Source of the DNA: Elainellaceae cyanobacterium
Lineage (GTDB): Bacteria; Cyanobacteriota; Cyanobacteriia; CAZCXK01
Assembly: GCA_051117555.1 (NCBI GenBank)
Contig: JBNPEG010000035.1
Coordinates: forward strand, 27,180-64,070
Length of the DNA: 36,891 bases
Direction: 5' to 3'
Shown: one piece after another, positions 3,019 through 21,026 of the stretch
Layout of the letters: each line of letters opens with the position of its first letter
Numbering within the stretch: position 1 is the first letter of the stretch
Position numbers and translations under genes: made by a program
The notes under the pieces: model-generated
Database searches by the model: none
What the model was told of the DNA's origin: nothing
Seen by the model: only the letters and a program-made list of their open reading frames with translations

Positions 3019-3654
3019 AGCTGTAAGGTCGGTGAGAGCAATGCACTTGCTCTGTGAATGTAGGGGGCAGAAGTCACGTCACGATCGGAAATCTTGAAGC
3101 ATCTGGTCGAGTCAGATATCGGTGACAGTAAAAACCGCAGATACACGACCCAACCGTAAGCATCTCCGAAGTCTTATCAAATCAAACAACACTGCACTCG
3201 CACTAGGGCGTATCCCTCCGCTTCATCGATTTCTTAAAGAGTCGGCGTGCAATTAAAAGGGAGTATTAAGATGATTTCCCCTCTATTCGGCTAATTTACT
3301 GAGTTTGATTCTAAAGCACCCTTCTCCATTTGACGGATTTTGCGGATACATTCTTACGGCTACTTCATATTTACTGCCTTTCGATGGTCGATATAGTTCT
3401 ACACACACTCGACGTGCTAACGCGAGAATATAGCCCTACGGACTCACCACCCGTTCAGCGTCATAACGCGAGAGTGTACGGCTATACAAGGCAATAGATC
3501 GATCTTGAAATGCGAGCTGTATTCTGAAGAAAGATGGATAAATGGACACTAGCTGATTAACTTGCTTCAAACTGAAACTAATAGGGGCTTACACTGCTCG
3601 AAACCTCTATAACGTGGGAATTTTTTCTGTCATTACGTAGAGACTCAAATTTTT

Positions 3655-10596: not shown

Positions 10597-10684
10597 TTTA
10601 TATCTCTCTAGCAACGTTAGCACACAATTACAATGATGGAACATACCCCATCATTACGATGCGGTTCATATTTCTAAGATTGTG

Positions 10685-11998
10685 ATGTTTCAAACGACTC
10701 GCCGCCGCCTAGCCCTATGGTATACCCTCGTCACCGCTACACTACTTATTTTGTTTGCGAGTGGGTTTTATTTATATGTCCGAAACACATTAGTGGAGCG
10801 AGTCGATGATACGTTAAACCACGTCGTTGAAGTGATTCAGCGATCGCTTGTCATTGAGCATGACTCCGAAGATAGGCTGCATGTCAATGTGGAAGCTAGT
10901 TTTCGAGACAATGCAGAGACGGTTGACGACGATCATATTGATTTGGAGTGGTTTAGCCCAACCGGAATCCTTGTCTGGTCGACCTTCGACCAGCCTCTCG
11001 ATAGCCCGCTTCATTTCAATTCAAAGGGTGAAACCGTTCACTTTCATGAGCAACTATTGCGACAGGTAACTCAGCGAGTGCAAATGGGGCGACACGTGTT
11101 GGGCTATCTTCGCGTCAGTCATCCTTGGTTTGAAGTCACTAAACCCATTCGTCAACTCATCGTTGATTTAAGTTGGGGAACGGCGCTCATGGTCGGAGTG
11201 ACGGCTGCGATTGGTTGGCTGCTGTCGGGGTTGGCAATGGCTCCGGTGCGAGACTCATATCAGCGTCTTAAGCAGTTTACAGCCGACGCATCTCATGAAT
11301 TGCGAAATCCAATTGCGGTGATTCAGACCAACGTGCAGGTGGCGCTTTCTGACTCCGATCCGCAATTTCAGCACGATCAGCTTAAAGTCGTCGAACGTAT
11401 TACGCGGCGACTGGGGCGATTGGTGGATGATTTGCTGTTTCTAGCTCGGCAAGACAGCGGCATTGTGCAGCTTTCGTTTAATCCAATTTCAATCTACGGC
11501 GTACTGAGTGAGGTGATTGACGAGCAGCAGGCGATCGCATCCGATAAACACGTTCAGCTTAGGCTAAATCATCCGAAACCGGACTCTCGTAGTAGCTCCA
11601 TCAAGACTGATCCCTACAGTCCGCTGTATCTGGTTCAGGGCGATCGCAATCAGCTGACCCGACTATTCACTAATCTCATTGGGAATGCGATTCAATATAC
11701 GCCTTCGGGGGGTGAGGTATATATTACGTTGACGACCCTAAAGCGAAACAACGACGTCCAGACTGTCGTTCAAGTCCAAGATACTGGAGTCGGGATTCCG
11801 CCTAATGCAATTCCTCATCTATTTGACCGCTTTTATCAAGTTGATTCATCTCGATCTCACAGAACAGGCTCAGGACTAGGGCTGGCGATCGCCAGAGCGA
11901 TTGTTGACAATCATCAGGGTCAGATTCACCTGGACAGCACTCCCGGCGAGGGCACGACTGTCACCGTAACGTTGCCCGACCTAAGCGAAGCGTCGTGA
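10685..11998 (+). CDS. Membrane sensor histidine kinase, orphan, possibly ManS/Hik27-like
   Basis: Two TM segments, H-box FTADASHELRNP, N-box NLIGNAIQY, DTGVGI, LFDRFY, GSGLGLAIA; the ManS resemblance is from memory of the N-terminus only. Confidence 0.9.
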   Translation: MFQTTRRRLALWYTLVTATLLILFASGFYLYVRNTLVERVDDTLNHVVEVIQRSLVIEHDSEDRLHVNVEASFRDNAETVDDDHIDLEWFSPTGILVWSTFDQPLDSPLHFNSKGETVHFHEQLLRQVTQRVQMGRHVLGYLRVSHPWFEVTKPIRQLIVDLSWGTALMVGVTAAIGWLLSGLAMAPVRDSYQRLKQFTADASHELRNPIAVIQTNVQVALSDSDPQFQHDQLKVVERITRRLGRLVDDLLFLARQDSGIVQLSFNPISIYGVLSEVIDEQQAIASDKHVQLRLNHPKPDSRSSSIKTDPYSPLYLVQGDRNQLTRLFTNLIGNAIQYTPSGGEVYITLTTLKRNNDVQTVVQVQDTGVGIPPNAIPHLFDRFYQVDSSRSHRTGSGLGLAIARAIVDNHQGQIHLDSTPGEGTTVTVTLPDLSEAS

Positions 11999-12034: not shown

Positions 12035-14380
12035 TTAACCGGAGTGGTTTAGTGCATCCAGAGCCGCTTGAATGAGATTAAAAATGTGCGGATGAGACAC
12101 ATCAACCTCACGAGCTTCGGCTCGATTTCGCCCCAATAATCCTCGATTGTGCTGAGGTTGAACGGCTAAGACCTGTCCTTCAGGGTTGCGGATTCTTAAT
12201 TCTTGAGCGCTACCAACCTGAGACAGGCTACACAGATATTGGCGTTGATTGTAGGTGAAGGTCGCCTTTTTCAACGGTGGCAAGGACGGGCCTTCAGAAT
12301 CAAAGTCACGATCTGATCTAGAACGTGGTGCATTCAGAGAGGGTGGAGTTGATGGCTTGGTGACCTCAAACATCTGTCCAAGGTTGCGATCGGCTGAATC
12401 AATCGGGAAGGATACTGTGTTGGACAAGACCTCATCCGATTCGTCTTGGGAATCAGATTGGTCGTCGTCAAACAGAGGTAGATTGTCATCAGAGAGAGGA
12501 TAGTGCTCACGCATCGATTCATCGGGCAGAGGAGATTCGATTGCGCTCAGAGCCGGGGTTTGAGGAAGCCGAACGCCGATCACCTCTAGCTCTACATTTT
12601 TGCTGCCGTTCCATTCATTGAGCCGCAAGCGATAGGCAACATCAACTCGACTCGGCAATGGGCAATATTCACCCCAACGCCAGGCGATCGCCCGAATACT
12701 TTTCATGCCGTCCTGTGCCAGGGTGAGCTTTAAGTGATTGCGCGATCGCCCGATGGTCTTTTGCTCTAAAACCCGAACATTAGGTGTCCAAAAAACCGGA
12801 TCGGAGTTCTCAATGCCGCAGGGATGTAGCGCATCAATTTGGCTATACAAATTAAGATCGAGCTGATCAAAGTTAGCTTGCACGTCGACGGTCACCAACG
12901 GCTTAAGATGATGGAGCTGGAGCTGCATATTGGCAAAGATTTGGAGGCGCGATCGCAGCTCTGACAGGTTTTCTGCCTGGAGTGAAAACCCTCCGGCAGC
13001 TCGATGCCCACCATATTTATCCAATCCCTCTTCACAAAACTTCAGCGCTTCAAACACATTAAATTCAGGAATTCCCCGCGCCGATCCCCGAATCCGAGTT
13101 GGATCATCATCTTCATAGGTGCCGATGAAAACTGGAACACCATATCGCTCGACTAGTCGAGATGCCACGATGCCGATAACGCCATGATGCCATCCCGGCT
13201 GAACGATAACCAGCACACGCTCCTGTTCTAAGTTGGGTTGGCGCTCTTCAATCCAATGAATGGCTTCTTGCTCAATCAGTTCGCACAACTGCTGGCGGCA
13301 TTGATTAATTTGTTCGCATTCCATTGCCCGTTCGAGGGCGTAGCCTTCATCGTCTGTCGTGAGCAGCTCAATGACAATTTCAGGATTGTGAATACGCCCG
13401 ACTGCGTTAATGCGAGGCCCCAACCGAAATCCGATGGCGTCTGGCTTCAGCGTGCCGGTTTCATGGCTAAGCCCTGCTACTTGAATCAGCGATCGCACGC
13501 CTGCGAGTCGAGAGGATGGCAAGAGCTTGAGTCCTCGTTTGACCCACCGACGATTGACACCCGTCAAAGGAGCTAAATCGGCAATGGTTCCTAAGGTGAA
13601 CAGCTCAAGCAACGACGTGGCTAAATCCTTGGTTTTGCCTAGATACTGGGCTAAGCAAACCGCAAGAATATAGGCAACTCCAACTCCTGCGAGCCCATAA
13701 TACGGCGATTCTGTTCGAATCAACTTGGGATTGAGGATGGCATGGGCAGGCGGCAGGCGGGGTGGAAGGTCGTGGTGGTCGGTGATAATCACCTTCAGAC
13801 CTAGTTCTCTCGCTCTAACAACGGGGTCGTAGGCTGCGATGCCATTGTCGACTGTGAGAATGAGATCAACTCCCTCTTGGTGAAAGTCTTCCACAATACG
13901 CTGATTAATGCCATATCCCTCTTTCATGCGGCTGGGAATCGCATAGTCAACTGTGGCACCTAAGAAGCGCAATGCTCGGATCAGCAAGGATGTGCTGGTC
14001 ATACCATCCGCATCATAATCTCCGCAAATCGCAATTTTTTGCTTAAATTCTACGGCAGTTGCGAGCAGTTCTAGCGCGGTTGACAAATCTGGGAATTCAT
14101 CGACTGGAGACGGAAGCTGTTGAATTTCGGGGTTGAGAAAAATTTTAGCCGCAGCCGATGTGGTGATGCCTCGGTTAATCATCACCTGGGTTAACAGAGG
14201 CGATAGTTCCGTTGCTTCGATGAGTCGCTGTGCCAGCTTAAGATTGGGAGATGCGATGTGCCAGCGTTGGCTCGGAAGCCGGGGCGATCGCCCCTTGTCT
14301 GCTGCACTGGTTTGGGTCGCAGCAGGAGAATTGCCATTTTTACCATTAAAGGATGCAGATGAAATAGGTCGAGTAGACAC
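12035..14380 (-). CDS. recJ: Single-stranded-DNA-specific exonuclease RecJ with C-terminal extension
   Basis: GDYDADG, ILTVDNG, ITDHH, LGTIAD, GPRINAVGR, HHGVIGIVASRL, GSARG, GGHRAAGG. Confidence 0.95.
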   Translation of the reverse strand: MSTRPISSASFNGKNGNSPAATQTSAADKGRSPRLPSQRWHIASPNLKLAQRLIEATELSPLLTQVMINRGITTSAAAKIFLNPEIQQLPSPVDEFPDLSTALELLATAVEFKQKIAICGDYDADGMTSTSLLIRALRFLGATVDYAIPSRMKEGYGINQRIVEDFHQEGVDLILTVDNGIAAYDPVVRARELGLKVIITDHHDLPPRLPPAHAILNPKLIRTESPYYGLAGVGVAYILAVCLAQYLGKTKDLATSLLELFTLGTIADLAPLTGVNRRWVKRGLKLLPSSRLAGVRSLIQVAGLSHETGTLKPDAIGFRLGPRINAVGRIHNPEIVIELLTTDDEGYALERAMECEQINQCRQQLCELIEQEAIHWIEERQPNLEQERVLVIVQPGWHHGVIGIVASRLVERYGVPVFIGTYEDDDPTRIRGSARGIPEFNVFEALKFCEEGLDKYGGHRAAGGFSLQAENLSELRSRLQIFANMQLQLHHLKPLVTVDVQANFDQLDLNLYSQIDALHPCGIENSDPVFWTPNVRVLEQKTIGRSRNHLKLTLAQDGMKSIRAIAWRWGEYCPLPSRVDVAYRLRLNEWNGSKNVELEVIGVRLPQTPALSAIESPLPDESMREHYPLSDDNLPLFDDDQSDSQDESDEVLSNTVSFPIDSADRNLGQMFEVTKPSTPPSLNAPRSRSDRDFDSEGPSLPPLKKATFTYNQRQYLCSLSQVGSAQELRIRNPEGQVLAVQPQHNRGLLGRNRAEAREVDVSHPHIFNLIQAALDALNHSG

Positions 14381-14585: not shown

Positions 14586-17500
14586 CTAAAACGGCAAATT
14601 TGTCAAAATAGGAGCCGTTAGTTTCTGTCGAGCACTTGCGGTCAAGCTATTTAGATACCGTCGAACCTGATGACATTGCTCAATATTGGTTTGATAGGTC
14701 TGATAGTCTTTTTTGTGAAACAGCGGTGCTGCTAATAAAATTCGATAGTCTGGATTTTGCTGAGATTCGGGAGTGAGGCAGTCAAAGTCACTTTGAGTAG
14801 GGACGAAGCCAGCCGGAAGCTGCCCTTCTAGTATTGCTAAAACCTGAGCGTAACAAATCTGCGGATCGATGCCTCGACTCTCTAAAATCTGCATGATGTT
14901 GCTGACCGTCAGGGGCTGATTGGGCAGCGCCCGCAGCAGTTCTAGCAGAAGAAAATAGTCGTTATACCGTCGCCGAGTGGGTTCCATCACGTTGGGATGG
15001 AGTGGTAGGGTGGCTAGTCCATAGGCGACTCGACTGCACGTGGGAGAGTATCTGTTTTGCTGAGATGATGTCGAATGGCTAGTATAGGTGTCTTGAATGA
15101 TCGTCGCTTGAGGTAATTTTTGGCGTAGCCAGATCGCGATAATGCGTAACGACGCGCTTCCTCCCGAACAAATCACCTGTCTAATCGAATAGAGAGATCC
15201 TCCCGTTTGTCTCAATAGATCGATCAGATCGTGGTGAAGAAGCTGAATAAAGGGCACAAACACCCGGCTTCCCAAATCTTGCTGAGGAATGACCCACTGC
15301 TCATCGCCCAACTGAATGGTAATACTCTTTTGATGCTGGAGGATAAATTTAATGCGACCTGCGATTTCCAGAAGGGTTTTGCCAGATTGAGAACTGTCGA
15401 GGCGCTGGCGCAACTGATGTCGCCTTGCTAAATCAGACTGTCCTGGATTCGGAAGCTCAAGCGTCTCAAGCCGCAAGTCGTCCCACGATATTTGCTCTGA
15501 AGACTCCAGATCTGCGGATTCAAACTCGATATTCGATGGGTCAATCTGCCGATTCGCTCGATACCGAGGAGGGTAGAGTAACTGGCATACAATGTCTTGG
15601 TCGAGAGCATCTCCCCCGAATGCTACACTCTTGGCTGTGAAGTCTTGATATGTCAGATCGTGTAGAGAATCGGGTAAGTTGACAAGAGCAAATTCGGTTG
15701 TAGAGGCGCCCGCATTGATTGCAAGTGTATAGCCAGTCCAATCGGTGTTATGGATGTGGGGTTGTTGCAATAGCTGAGAAGGAAGCATAACCGATCGCCC
15801 ATCTGCACCGTGCAAGCCCGACAATATCGTGGCGATCGCATCATCGACAAACATCACCTGCTCAGGACCTGCAACAAGACGGGCTCCCAAAACAGCTTCT
15901 CGAACGTTAAAGCGATAGGTATCAGACCCGCATTCAGGTTGTCCCATGATTACGCCTGCTAGCTGTTGAAGGGCGGATTGAAACGCTGATTCTTCTAGCC
16001 CTATCGCACCACAGCTTACTGTAGAAACCGCTGCAGTCAAGGGCGATCGCGACGTACCAAGGGTGTTTAACAAAAGCTGGAGCGCTTGATATAGTTGGCT
16101 AAGTGCGACTTGGTGCTGATCTGTCCACTGGAGAACGGGTTCCCATGTCGACGTTTGGGCCGAATAGTAGGGAATGCCGACATTGAGATAGGGCTTAAAG
16201 TGCTGTAGCGAAACATAGGTCTCTTGAGGATACTGATCGGCAGTCAGAGATTCTCCATGCTCTTGACTTGCGTCTAGAATGGGAGGTCCGCTAAGGAGAG
16301 TGGAGGGCGCATCTGGAATAGTCAATGAAGCCAGCGTCGGCAGCCGGAATCGATTCTCAGGTGTTTCTGACGAGGCGTCGGCTAACGAACTGGCATCACT
16401 CCAATAAATGGGGTGCAGTTCGCATGTCTGACGGTTAAGCAAGACAGCAGAGAGCCCGGTGGTTCCAAAATCGATGCCTAAAAACCACGTAGCGTGTCGA
16501 GGTTCGTCCTGATGGGGCGGAGGCGATGGCGGGGCAGCCTCAGGATTGGTAAACACAGACTCTATTGAAGCAATTTCCTGCTCAGTTGCAGAAATATCAG
16601 TGTCAGCAGACAGATTAAACTGTTCCGGGCGATCGCCAACGGGTTCGACACGAGCCTCTGGAACATCTTCGTTGAGATCGAGGTCGGGCGTTGCAAGCGC
16701 TAAATCGGGAGTCGGGTTCGCATTGACGTCACTCGCTTCAGAATCGAAAGAATCAGGTTCATCATTTAGATTCTTTTTTTTTTGGCTAGATTCGTTTGCC
16801 TCCTCTGGATCGCCTGGCCGGCCTGTCCTAGCTGGATTGACATAACCAGAAAGGTTGCCCTGCCAGGGTATTTCGCTAGCGTCGGGACTTGCCATCAGGT
16901 CATAGAGCGTTTGTCCTTCCGGGGGAGTGTCAGATGATGAAATATCGGCGTGAGTCAGATCTTCAAACAGGCTGTCAAGTCCTTCGATGGTTGAAGGCTG
17001 TCTATCTTCAACATCGATGCCTTCATTCTCAAACGTAAACACGTTGTCAAGATTAATATCCTCTTTATTGTCTACTGATGCTGTCTCATCAACCGGTATG
17101 TCAGTAGACGAATCTACGTGCCCCGCAACGTCATCGAGAGTCAATGCAGAATCGTCTGACTCGGCTAGAGAATCCGCATCAATAGTTAGAGCTCGCAATA
17201 AGTCATCCTCAAGATTCGGCATTGAAAGGAGACGTTCTAAGCTCAGATCACGGTCAGGAAGATTCAGCAGGTTATCCGTATCCGCGTCGCTTCGGGATAC
17301 GCCTGTATCCTGACTTTCTTCACGGGGAAAATCAACAGTCTGCACCGAATCACCCGCATCTTGACTGGTGAACAAGTCTTCAACGGTGGGATAGTCAGAC
17401 AGCGATTCCTCATCATTGTGAGACGAAAAAATTAATGTTTGGTCGTCATCCGAATCGTCTAAATCATAATCCTCAGCGAAAAGGTCGATACCCTCCGATG

Positions 17501-19988
17501 AGGAATAACTACTGGTCTCTGACATATTGGCTATGAGGTCTGATGCATCAGCCGCGAAAAAGTCATCCTCTGGAGGAAGAAAATCATCGGCGGCTGCAGG
17601 TGTTCCCGATGACGTCAGAGCAGCGAATATGGTGTTGCTCGAGGAGCCAGTCTGAGCGGATTCAAATACGTCTTGGCGTTCATCCGTCATATCCGCGTCG
17701 GATGTGTCTAGAGGAGTAAGGTTTTCAGACTCATTTAAATCAGACTGGAGGAACGTAATTTCATCCTGCTCCAGACCTTCTAACTGAGAAAGATCAGTTG
17801 TGAGCTGCTGAAGGGTTGACTCATCGAGTTGGAGATCAAGCCGAGGATCGCGGGGCTGATCCTCCGCTATTAACAGATTCTCGTCCGGAGAGGCTGCAAT
17901 AAACTCTCTCTCAAAAGAATCCTGATTGGGGTCATTAGAAGGCGAGGTGAGGCCATCATCGAGGTCATCATCAGACTCCGAATCAATCACCAGATCAGTC
18001 AAGCTAGCGATTGTCTCAATAGAGTCATCGGATTCATCATCGTCGGATTCATTGAGTAGATGATTAGGGGGGGTATCCGTTTGATCGGTGTGGGGGGCAA
18101 CGCCAAGACTTTCATCAAACAGGAAATTTTCCAGGGTTTGCTCAGACAATGCGTCGTCTTCGAATGACCGGACAGGCGCTTCATTCGGATCGTCATCGTT
18201 TGCAACAGGTTGAGATGAGGTGTCCCCGTCTAGGAAGTCGTCATACTCAGATGGCGCGATCGCCCTCTGCTCTGGGATTTCTTCTGGGTAGACTGCCGTC
18301 GAATCGACGTCTTGCTCGTCATTGAGATTCTCGTAGAATGCATCGAATTCGTGATAGAGATTTTCTGGAGATGCGGCTTCGGAGGGAGTATCTGCGCCCA
18401 TCAATGTGGGTTCTGTCTCCGATGCCTCTACCCGATCGTTTTCATCAATGGTGCTCAGTTTCTCATCCCGCAACTCAGCGGTGATTTGGTTGAGAATATC
18501 TAAAGCATCAGAGTCAGATTGATCGGTTGAGTCTGATGGAAGGCTTGCAGCGATCGCATCAATATCGTCATCAATAATGCTGTCGTCACTATCATCGATA
18601 CTGTCATCAGCCGATACGTCCTGAGAAAGAATAGTCTCATCAACGTCAGTCGTTTCGGCAGCGTCATCAAATTGGAAGATGGCCATCTGACCATCCAAAT
18701 CGACGGGCAAATCTAGAAATGCCAGGTCTGATTGCAAGTCGAGGTTATCGATATCAAGATTGAGAGAGTCAAGGTCATCGAAGTCTTCTCGATCTAAATC
18801 AGCCAATTCGTTCGCGGGATCGGTCTGAGCTGCCAGATCAGACTGACCGGATGCTGAATCAGCCGCGTCAGCCGCGTCAAACTGAACCGTGTCGCCTGTC
18901 TGATCACCTACTTCGGCATTAGGCCCATCCAGCATATCCAGGTCTTCAGTGTTTATCTCCCCCAAGAACTGATCAATTTGATCATCTGAGAGCTCATCTG
19001 GAATAGACTGCTCTGCCGATCGCCACGGCGGAGATTCACGCCGATCGGCGGGTGGAGTCGTCGCATTTTCGACGCTGGAGAGCCCTGGCAGCTCCCACTC
19101 CGTATTGTCTAAGGATGACCGCAAATAGGACGATGCTTCTTGGCCAAGCTGCCGCGCTAACCGATTGATTAACGCAGCAAACATAATCTCGCCCTGCTGC
19201 CCCAGGCTATGCATTTTGCCAAGCCCTTGCCCTAGCGAGTCTTGATAGCTCTCAATGTTTTTCTGAAGCGACTCAAAGACAACACCCATCGTTGAATCGA
19301 GCTTGAGCATGAGTTCATCAGACCTAGATTGGAGCATCTGAATATGCTCAAGCCGTTCTCGCGGGCTGAGTCGGGGCAAGTTGGCGATCGCCTCTGATGA
19401 GCCTTCTAATTGTCGTTCCTGGATCGATCGAGCTTCTAGATCAGCCAGGGTTTGAACAACCTGGCTGGTTAAATGTTCTTGTAGCTTCTCCATCAGCGTG
19501 CGGAGAAATTCATTGATGACACGCTGCTGGTCAACGGCTTGGGGCGGACCATACTCACGTCGCTGAGCTTCGAGTTGTCTCACCTCTGCTAGCAGTGCTT
19601 CGCGCTGTTGATGTAGACGAGCGACATCTTCTCGAAGCGGCTGCATCATATTTGACCGCAGATAGTCCATTTCTTGGACAACGGCCTGTAAAACCTGCTG
19701 GGCTGATTCCCCGGGCGAAGCAAGCGATTGGCGCGACTGGGTTGAATCGTCTGAATCATCTGTCACCCGTCGGTCATCTGCGTTAGAAAGTCCAATATCT
19801 GAACGCGCGCGATCGCTGGCCTCATTCTGTTGCTGTAGAGACACCAGATAGTCGCGAGCTTGTTCGAGCACGTGTTGCTGACGAGCAGAATCCCCAGACA
19901 TAACCCAGGGAAGGCGCAGGCTCGATTTGCTAAGCACCTCATCAATCGTGCTGATTAGTGATTGAATCTGAGAATTTTGAGAAGTCAC
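14586..19988 (-). CDS. 1800-aa protein: N-terminal coiled coil, long Asp/Glu-rich region, C-terminal Hsp70/actin-like ATPase fold
   Basis: Heptad-like N-terminal ~300 aa; ~850 aa acidic low-complexity region; FLGIDFGTTG (phosphate 1), INAGASTT (phosphate 2-like), GGDALDQDI, VICSGGSASL (adenosine). Confidence 0.8.
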   Translation of the reverse strand: MTSQNSQIQSLISTIDEVLSKSSLRLPWVMSGDSARQQHVLEQARDYLVSLQQQNEASDRARSDIGLSNADDRRVTDDSDDSTQSRQSLASPGESAQQVLQAVVQEMDYLRSNMMQPLREDVARLHQQREALLAEVRQLEAQRREYGPPQAVDQQRVINEFLRTLMEKLQEHLTSQVVQTLADLEARSIQERQLEGSSEAIANLPRLSPRERLEHIQMLQSRSDELMLKLDSTMGVVFESLQKNIESYQDSLGQGLGKMHSLGQQGEIMFAALINRLARQLGQEASSYLRSSLDNTEWELPGLSSVENATTPPADRRESPPWRSAEQSIPDELSDDQIDQFLGEINTEDLDMLDGPNAEVGDQTGDTVQFDAADAADSASGQSDLAAQTDPANELADLDREDFDDLDSLNLDIDNLDLQSDLAFLDLPVDLDGQMAIFQFDDAAETTDVDETILSQDVSADDSIDDSDDSIIDDDIDAIAASLPSDSTDQSDSDALDILNQITAELRDEKLSTIDENDRVEASETEPTLMGADTPSEAASPENLYHEFDAFYENLNDEQDVDSTAVYPEEIPEQRAIAPSEYDDFLDGDTSSQPVANDDDPNEAPVRSFEDDALSEQTLENFLFDESLGVAPHTDQTDTPPNHLLNESDDDESDDSIETIASLTDLVIDSESDDDLDDGLTSPSNDPNQDSFEREFIAASPDENLLIAEDQPRDPRLDLQLDESTLQQLTTDLSQLEGLEQDEITFLQSDLNESENLTPLDTSDADMTDERQDVFESAQTGSSSNTIFAALTSSGTPAAADDFLPPEDDFFAADASDLIANMSETSSYSSSEGIDLFAEDYDLDDSDDDQTLIFSSHNDEESLSDYPTVEDLFTSQDAGDSVQTVDFPREESQDTGVSRSDADTDNLLNLPDRDLSLERLLSMPNLEDDLLRALTIDADSLAESDDSALTLDDVAGHVDSSTDIPVDETASVDNKEDINLDNVFTFENEGIDVEDRQPSTIEGLDSLFEDLTHADISSSDTPPEGQTLYDLMASPDASEIPWQGNLSGYVNPARTGRPGDPEEANESSQKKKNLNDEPDSFDSEASDVNANPTPDLALATPDLDLNEDVPEARVEPVGDRPEQFNLSADTDISATEQEIASIESVFTNPEAAPPSPPPHQDEPRHATWFLGIDFGTTGLSAVLLNRQTCELHPIYWSDASSLADASSETPENRFRLPTLASLTIPDAPSTLLSGPPILDASQEHGESLTADQYPQETYVSLQHFKPYLNVGIPYYSAQTSTWEPVLQWTDQHQVALSQLYQALQLLLNTLGTSRSPLTAAVSTVSCGAIGLEESAFQSALQQLAGVIMGQPECGSDTYRFNVREAVLGARLVAGPEQVMFVDDAIATILSGLHGADGRSVMLPSQLLQQPHIHNTDWTGYTLAINAGASTTEFALVNLPDSLHDLTYQDFTAKSVAFGGDALDQDIVCQLLYPPRYRANRQIDPSNIEFESADLESSEQISWDDLRLETLELPNPGQSDLARRHQLRQRLDSSQSGKTLLEIAGRIKFILQHQKSITIQLGDEQWVIPQQDLGSRVFVPFIQLLHHDLIDLLRQTGGSLYSIRQVICSGGSASLRIIAIWLRQKLPQATIIQDTYTSHSTSSQQNRYSPTCSRVAYGLATLPLHPNVMEPTRRRYNDYFLLLELLRALPNQPLTVSNIMQILESRGIDPQICYAQVLAILEGQLPAGFVPTQSDFDCLTPESQQNPDYRILLAAPLFHKKDYQTYQTNIEQCHQVRRYLNSLTASARQKLTAPILTNLPF

Positions 19989-20450: not shown

Positions 20451-21026
20451 ATGAGATTTTTTCGACGCTCTGTTCTGAAAGCAATTTCTACTATCGGATT
20501 AAGCCTAGGTCTTACCTTGATTTTAGGATTATGTACTGCGTCTGATGCATTAGCACTGGGAGGGCCACAGCCTCCCATAGGACAGCCTGCACCTGCCTTC
20601 TCGTTGCTGACTAACAGCGGCGATGGTGAGATATCACTGTCTGACTATCAAGGCCAGTGGGTCGTTGTTTACTTCTATCCGCAAGATTTCACGTCAGGCT
20701 GCACCCTTGAAGCGCGGAGGTTTCAGCAAGATTTACCAAAATATCTAAAGCGAAATACACAAATCCTGGGCGTGAGCGTAGATGATGTCGATTCTCATGC
20801 AGATTTTTGTGATTCTGAAGGGCTTCGATTTCCGTTACTTGCAGATGTAGATGGATCGGTGAGTCAGGCATATGGGTCTTGGCTGGGGTATCGCTCTCTC
20901 CGTCATACCTATCTGATTGACCCTGATGGCATCTTAAGAGAGCGCTTCTTAGGAGTTAGACCGGCAATTCATAGTGCTGAGGTATTGGCTCGGCTAGATG
21001 ATCTGCAAGCTGAACATACATCCTAA
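20451..21026 (+). CDS. Peroxiredoxin (PrxQ/BCP family) with Tat-like signal peptide
   Basis: YFYPQDFTSGCTLEA, ILGVSVD, FPLLAD, RHTYLIDPDG; N-terminal FRRSVLK, hydrophobic stretch, ALA. Confidence 0.92.
   Translation: MRFFRRSVLKAISTIGLSLGLTLILGLCTASDALALGGPQPPIGQPAPAFSLLTNSGDGEISLSDYQGQWVVVYFYPQDFTSGCTLEARRFQQDLPKYLKRNTQILGVSVDDVDSHADFCDSEGLRFPLLADVDGSVSQAYGSWLGYRSLRHTYLIDPDGILRERFLGVRPAIHSAEVLARLDDLQAEHTS

Follow-up and report, generated by a model that had tools for sequence, protein, structure and literature searches.

We describe here a run of ten adenosines (A10) inside a gene for a protein of 1800 amino acids (aa) of an Elainellaceae cyanobacterium (assembly GCA_051117555.1, contig JBNPEG010000035.1), and propose that this tract is a conserved, programmed slippage site through which one gene would yield two proteins, a reading to which we assign a probability of roughly 0.78. 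The stretch analysed, hereafter the window, comprises 36,891 nucleotides (nt), and positions refer to it. A run of nine to eleven A's (A9-A11) occurs at the same junction in 87 of the 123 related loci scored, from 18 of 24 families and 49 genera, and this recurrence of one run at one place is far beyond chance. Where the gene is split into two overlapping open reading frames (ORFs), as in 62 loci, the run lies inside the overlap. The long/short isoform switch suggested by a first-pass annotation, made from the letters of the window, is thereby supported through comparison, as a switch that is inferred rather than observed. That annotation had named two signs to look for in orthologs, namely a run of at least eight A's persisting within a divergent linker, and homologs split at a KKK or KKN end, and both were found.

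The tract and the signals around it can be read directly from the window, where they are arranged as follows.
14586..19988, minus strand: the 1800-aa gene holding the A10 tract, with a GTG start (ORF list and translation)
16774..16783, minus strand: the A10 run, proposed slippage site (T10 on the plus strand), seen in the sequence and kept in 87 of 123 related loci
16773..16779, minus strand: A_AAA_AAG heptamer, in phase for -1 ribosomal slippage by sequence and frame (last A of codon 1070, then AAA AAG)
16762..16764, minus strand: TGA closing the -1 frame (AAA GAA TCT AAA TGA); one extra A would give 1075 aa ending in KKKESK
16766..16768, minus strand: TAA closing the +1 frame (AGA ATC TAA); one A fewer would give 1073 aa ending in KKRI
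16799..16803, minus strand: GGAGG, 15 nt upstream of the A10 run, seen in the sequence and not conserved at the site

On the coding strand the surroundings read GAGGAGG, CAAACGAATCTAGCC, AAAAAAAAAA (the A10 run) and G AAT CTA AAT GAT GAA. The run occupies nt 3206-3215 of the gene and codons 1069-1072, spelled CAA AAA AAA AAG (Q1069 K K K1072), close to the codon 1070 given in the first-pass annotation, and it is indeed the longest homopolymer of the window, all other runs being of 7 nt or shorter. The heptamer and both out-of-frame stops are likewise as that annotation described them, with the alternative frames terminating 3 (+1) and 5 (-1) codons on. In the genome as a whole (6.06 Mb, 48.8% G+C) there are three A/T runs of 10 and none longer, where about 8 would be expected from independent bases (p ~0.256), so that a 10-run somewhere in the genome is not improbable in itself. 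Within the 2335 open frames of at least 300 aa, the tract of the 1800-aa gene is the only sense-strand A10. Moreover, just 5 of 67 KKK tripeptides in these frames are spelled AAA AAA AA[A/G], even though AAA makes up 57% of lysine codons.

Relatives were collected in two steps. A first round searched 41 related genomes and found the gene in 30, in many as two adjacent pieces, and 24 full loci were compared. Class-wide, the C-terminal domain was then matched in 206 of 401 genomes (E ≤1e-25), and the junctions of 100 more genomes, all among those with listed match coordinates, were added to the 24, giving 124 loci, of which 123 were scored (L148 had no tblastn hit). Family (f), genus (g) and locus (L) labels are codes. 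All four genomes of the window's own family carry A10 in the same phase, one of them at 50% protein identity and with diverged flanks; beyond this family, the first round contained 13 genomes split at A9 or A10, 3 with an in-frame run and 4 without a run. The scored loci fall into the following classes.
Split, scored by script: 61 loci, with an A9-A11 run within the ORF overlap in 61 of 61
Split, scored by eye: 1 locus (L073, genome G238), with A11 in a 13-nt overlap
Fused, with an in-frame run: 25 loci, 23 with A10 and 2 with A9; the window belongs here
Fused, run absent: 34 loci, longest A run of 7 or shorter
Separate genes, family f27: 2 loci, run absent

Junction runs are of 9, 10 or 11 only, in all three codon phases, and runs of 7 or 8 were not seen at the junction in any of the 123 loci. 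For most loci without a run the sequence read covers the 2.3-3.4 kb ahead of the domain; five of them (L038, L044, L046, L053 and L155) were read whole and have no run at the junction either. Family f32 is divided, with some genera (loci L110, L111 and L117) retaining GAA AAA AAA AAG GAA (EKKKE), and others (L106, L108 and L112) having A5 remnants (EKQE, EKED) at equal distance from the domain. The fused genes with such remnants appear to have lost the run recently.

Why would a run of this kind be kept in genes that are read straight through it? One answer is that it is incidental, with KKK kept for reasons of the protein, and with the split genomes representing two independently translated genes, pseudogenes or sequencing errors. 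Family f27 lends this some substance, as in its two loci (L132 of G312 and L146 of G280) the N and C genes are truly apart, with a spacer of about 130-140 nt without an A run, and an ATG belonging to the C gene stands a few codons ahead of a WYLGIDFGTTG motif. Such an arrangement means that the N and C parts can each exist as a polypeptide of its own, and proteins of the size of the C ORF do stand alone as hypothetical proteins in public sources. The codons of the run itself speak differently: in all 25 in-frame loci every synonymous position of the run is A, against the 5 of 67 with which KKK is so spelled genome-wide. This choice of codons indicates that selection is acting on the nucleotides of the run. 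Furthermore, the frames that slippage would open tend to close early. The +1 stop of the 25 in-frame loci comes at a median of 1 codon past the run, against a background of 13, and in 14 of them both other frames are closed within 8 codons, against 18% of background positions. As such, an early out-of-frame stop like the +1 TAA of the window is typical of its in-frame relatives.

The split loci argue further against an incidental run. The break falls at the run, within the ORF overlap, in 62 of 62 loci and never elsewhere in the parts read, instead of being scattered over a 5-kb gene. The overlap is down to 13 nt in five loci, and in some the downstream frame opens inside the run. In every split locus the frame of the C domain stays free of stops between the run and the ATPase motif, a distance of 17-562 codons in the 56 loci with the motif located; four loci of family f17 have long linkers. 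The N ORFs end in ...KKKL*, ...EKKK*, ...EKKN* and similar, with the 0-frame stop within 5 codons past the run in 52 of 61 loci, and the peptide that follows the lysines is alike in fused and shifted readings (KKKNLNDEP, KKKGIVDET, KKKVDEP, KKNLIEP, KKKLAEP). In 7 of the 56 loci no ATG, GTG or TTG stands between the run and the phosphate-1 motif, so that independent initiation of the domain is not possible in these loci; in a different respect, 7 of 56 have a C-frame start beside the N stop, as independently translated genes might. Whole genera share one frame state at A10, with g18 (4/4, +1), g24 (4/4, -1), g80 (5/5, -1), g88 (4/4, +1) and g101 (3/3, -1), and several of these loci sit on multi-megabase single contigs. 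Sequencing error is ruled out by such genus-wide sharing of an out-of-frame state, complete genomes included. Taken with the codon spelling, this leaves an incidental run as a very improbable account. L073 stands apart in that no more than 137 codons of its upstream frame are open in the piece read, so that its N part may be shorter or broken a second time.

Frame states also bear on whether the tract could be a contingency locus, that is a hypermutable DNA repeat at which replication slippage switches cells heritably between a fused and a truncated form, with one form per cell. In-frame, -1 and +1 states all occur among the relatives and are mixed within genera g39, g44 and g134, which shows that the frame state flips in evolution; in g39, an in-frame A10 found in two genomes corresponds to A11 in a third. 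Yet the run stays at 9-11, and mostly at 10, in every state. Among the split loci, 44 need a -1 shift (9 with A9, 31 with A10, 4 with A11) and 18 need +1 (17 with A10, 1 with A11), so that A10 is the run length of 23 in-frame, 31 -1 and 17 +1 loci. The same A10 in all frame states implies that frames differ by changes beside the run, and not by its length. Length variation among close strains that tracks the frame, by which a contingency tract would be recognised, is thus not what is found here, and separate species of whole genera share one out-of-frame state. Two independent soil-metagenome DNA assemblies that cross the tract, X1 (0 differences) and X3 (a diverged relative), have no indel at it; a third, X2, ends short of the tract. 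Phase variation, which the first-pass annotation had offered as its alternative, therefore fits less well than a programmed site, and we regard it as improbable.

Given a programmed site, the question is which machinery slips. In one account this is mainly the ribosome, shifting to -1 on A_AAA_AAG or A_AAA_AAA in the manner of E. coli dnaX, and the polymerase copies the tract faithfully. The window does have a correctly phased heptamer of the X_XXY_YYZ type in A_AAA_AAG, and its genome carries one tRNA-Lys gene (UUU) and no CUU gene among the 42 tRNA genes found. In E. coli, having only tRNA-Lys(UUU) makes AAG shift-prone. The -1 direction needed by 44 of 62 split loci, the 0-frame stop close behind the run in 52 of 61, and the GGAGG 15 nt upstream in the window would suit this account as well. 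The E. coli dnaX signal is defined by an upstream Shine-Dalgarno (SD)-like element and a downstream stem-loop. At the cyanobacterial site neither is conserved. The first-pass annotation had placed the GGAGG correctly, but its role as a stimulator does not hold up as a conserved feature, with SD-like motifs upstream in 16 of 53 non-redundant loci against a 15% background. RNA structure within 50 nt on each side shows a mean z of -0.3 to +0.6 over the same 53 loci and none that is conserved; for the window's own 161 nt around the tract the folding z is +0.58, and a scan of the surroundings against Rfam gave no family at gathering score and no frameshift element. The flanks of these loci have no conservation besides a G or C beside the run. 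Furthermore, a heptamer would be enough for the ribosome, yet junction runs are never shorter than 9, and the 18 of 62 split loci that need +1 are beyond reach of a -1 heptamer, so that the direction is not -1 throughout the family. We thus consider the ribosome unlikely to be the main site of slippage. The likeness to E. coli dnaX in the window lies in the phased A_AAA_AAG, the single tRNA-Lys(UUU) and a short product that would end few codons past the shift; the difference lies in the stimulators, and in one in three split relatives needing +1.

A predicted 8-bp hairpin in the window (16741-16772, minus strand), in which AGAAUCUA pairs with UGAUUCUU, begins with the G that directly follows the run. 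Relatives do not conserve this hairpin, and the folding energy of the region is ordinary.

A bare run of 9-11 and never of 7-8, its indifference to codon phase, the occurrence of both -1 and +1 and the lack of stimulators together point to RNA polymerase, and it is most likely mainly this enzyme that slips on the homopolymer. A site of this type is characterised by a run that fills the RNA-DNA hybrid (about 9 nt or more), by conservation of the run inside divergent sequence, and by flanking frames that are either parts of one protein or alternative frames ending at once. The run of 10 here and of 9-11 in relatives, its persistence between diverged flanks, and the frames on either side agree with all three. 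Since the window has A_AAA_AAG in phase and its genome a single tRNA-Lys(UUU), ribosomes may plausibly contribute to the -1 product as well.

The proposed sequence of events would be as follows. RNA polymerase copies a T10 template, so that the RNA-DNA hybrid would consist wholly of rA:dT, and the nascent RNA could re-pair one position back or forward, leaving a mix of mRNAs with A9, A10 and A11. In the window, faithful A10 mRNA would encode the 1800-aa protein, with its SepJ-like coiled coil, acidic linker and Hsp70/actin-like ATPase domain. An A11 mRNA would enter the -1 frame and stop after KKKESK at 1075 aa, and an A9 mRNA would enter the +1 frame and stop after KKRI at 1073 aa, and either product would be a scaffold made of the N part only. 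Some of the short form may also come from ribosomes that slip to -1 on A_AAA_AAG, which the single tRNA-Lys(UUU) decodes. Where the run lies in the overlap of two ORFs that are out of frame, as it does in most relatives, the default would be the N-only protein, and slippage would produce the fusion. That slippage takes place, which machine performs it and what ratio of products results are all inferred from comparison. As to the ratio, reporter frameshift efficiency has been found to rise with the length of poly-A, from 10% for 7 A through 40% for 9 A to 63% for 11 A (PMC3711429, consulted in part), from which a substantial short fraction may be expected in the window.

A bolder extension is that A10 is an ancient, frame-agnostic hinge at which polymerase slippage samples three frames, with lineages drifting among in-frame, -1 and +1 states while keeping both products. 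Selection would then keep the length of the run and with it set the ratio of scaffold-only to ATPase-fused protein, and the protein would be a septum or divisome component of filamentous cyanobacteria. We offer this tentatively, as a possible view that may well turn out otherwise.

Several points weigh against a programmed site. The 34 fused and 2 separate loci without a run mean that the site is dispensable in some lineages. Translational coupling is possible in 7 of 56 split loci, whose C frame has a start codon no more than 15 nt from the N stop, and a further 42 of 56 have some start codon between the run and the domain. The scored set is 123 of 206 matching genomes, biased to stronger matches and closer relatives, and as the genomes are relatives of each other, independent events are fewer than the locus counts suggest. 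The literature searched, parts of which were accessible, gave no account of how a cyanobacterial RNA polymerase slips on A10. Finally, the mRNAs and proteins of two lengths are predicted from comparison, and none of the sequencing runs listed as containing the stretch is an RNA run.

The protein that the tract would divide is built from three parts.
19089..19988, minus strand: N-terminal coiled-coil domain, aa 1-300, by homology to the coiled coil of a 622-aa paralog
16791..19088, minus strand: acidic, lysine-poor linker, aa 301-1066, 28% D+E by composition count
14589..16502, minus strand: C-terminal Hsp70/actin-like ATPase-fold domain with helical tail, aa ~1163-1800, by structure model and fold search

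Searches of Pfam and NCBIfam with the whole protein, the N end and the C end gave no family, and relatives in public sources are every one named "hypothetical protein" and come from filamentous cyanobacteria. At the N end, aa 90-303 match a 622-aa paralog in the same genome (E 9e-16, 33% identity), which is encoded on the minus strand at L156:53-1921 (contig C216 of G000) and consists of an N-terminal coiled coil, an S/P-rich linker and an EamA permease. This is the architecture of SepJ, a septal protein of filamentous cyanobacteria with a coiled coil, linker and permease (PMC12096826, consulted in part). The 1800-aa protein shares with it a homologous coiled coil and a long low-complexity linker; it differs in having an acidic linker and ending in an Hsp70/actin-like ATPase fold. 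The C-terminal DMT/EamA permease by which SepJ is recognised is found on the 622-aa paralog and not on the 1800-aa protein. A SepJ-type protein, with open frames of about 560-820 aa, is matched once in most genomes that have the 1800-aa-type gene. The linker is so poor in lysine that aa 301-1150 hold 5 K, 3 of which are the KKK of the tract.

For the C domain, which the first-pass annotation had called Hsp70-like and put about 100 codons past the tract, the phosphate-1-like motif WFLGIDFGTTG that opens it lies at aa 1168, 96 codons past the run. An AlphaFold model from a 24-sequence alignment (pLDDT 80, pTM 0.84) has DnaK nucleotide-binding domains as its top Foldseek matches (E 1.3e-10, TM by target 0.63), and also MreB. 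The assignment thus holds at the level of fold, the domain being predicted to have a two-lobed Hsp70/actin-like (ASKHA) ATPase fold with a D-x-G-T-T-type phosphate-1 loop. A profile search against the PDB gave weak matches only, to PilM, DnaK and MreB (E 0.017 or weaker), and by sequence the domain is not placed in the Hsp70 family proper, as the HSP70 model had no match in the Pfam and NCBIfam searches.

A link to SepI (Alr3364, 521 aa; PMC12421839, consulted in part) was considered and found no support. Of the 39 proteins retrieved with the first 520 aa of an f32 ortholog none is named alr3364 or SepI, and five f32 genomes that were searched contain only the 1800-aa-type gene and the SepJ-sized paralog.

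The mechanism that we propose is known from other genes. In Thermus thermophilus, dnaX has an A9 with transcriptional slippage, and two-ORF dnaX genes with A10 exist, according to the consulted part of PMC3711429. As proposed for the gene described here, an A9 or A10 run in the coding region leads to a long and a short product, and in both cases one orthologous family holds both in-frame forms and two-ORF forms split at the run. The proteins are unrelated, and the cyanobacterial family has in-frame, -1 and +1 states at one run length. In tssM1 of Citrobacter rodentium, an A11 before the stop allows transcriptional slippage to add A's, yielding truncated and full-length forms; both length variants and their ratio are required, and the full-length form carries a C-terminal domain (PMC4256274, consulted in part). 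A poly-A run just ahead of a stop is common to both systems, as would be the two lengths and a C-terminal domain on the long form, whereas tssM1, going by that source, is an enterobacterial secretion-system membrane component of few species, and the cyanobacterial site is found in 18 families and is in frame in the window. The Mg-chelatase (chlD/bchD-type) frameshift clusters also have poly-A, of 7-11, at a domain junction, with efficiency rising with length (same part of PMC3711429). They concern another protein, and their runs go down to 7, against only 9-11 in the cyanobacterial family. With the mechanism thus known from dnaX and tssM1, the cyanobacterial family and site seem new: we found no report of either in the full-text literature searched, including the accessible parts of PMC5009743 and PMC3711429, and cyanobacterial genus names are absent from two of the three supplementary files of the latter. 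An unusual feature, as read from the genomes, is that in-frame, -1, +1, run-lost and separate-gene forms occur within one orthologous family.

If the reading is correct, a chromosomal gene of cyanobacteria would carry a recoding site that is widely conserved, and the presence of this site in 18 of 24 sampled families implies that it is old and that a bare homopolymer is under strong selection. Annotations as separate "hypothetical proteins" would then miss the fused product in most species, and in species like that of the window they would miss the truncated one. The natural series of in-frame, -1 and +1 states, lost runs and separated genes suits the study of how slippage ratios are tuned, and of how the cyanobacterial polymerase behaves on A runs. 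A protein that joins a SepJ-type coiled coil to an Hsp70/actin-like ATPase may, through two isoforms kept at a fixed ratio, matter to the biology of the septum or the filament.

Some further features of the locus and genome are recorded here. The neighbours of the 1800-aa gene are unremarkable. Directly downstream of it lies a gene for the RecJ exonuclease (12035-14380, minus strand), and upstream, on the opposite strand, one for a PrxQ-type peroxiredoxin (20451-21026, plus strand); an RppB-like sensor histidine kinase is encoded at 10682-11998 (plus strand). Within the acidic region, the coding strand has a C7 and a C6 run, which appear on the plus strand as G7 at 18067-18073 and G6 at 18092-18097. 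Elsewhere in the genome, open frames of at least 300 aa contain three further A9 runs on the sense strand, on contigs C47, C73 and C157 of G000. Those on C47 (near 45168, plus strand) and C73 (near 7390, plus strand) lie at codon 30 of 495 and codon 28 of 676, respectively. The third, on C157 (near 7610, plus strand), is internal, at codon 548 of 890, and could be slippage-prone.

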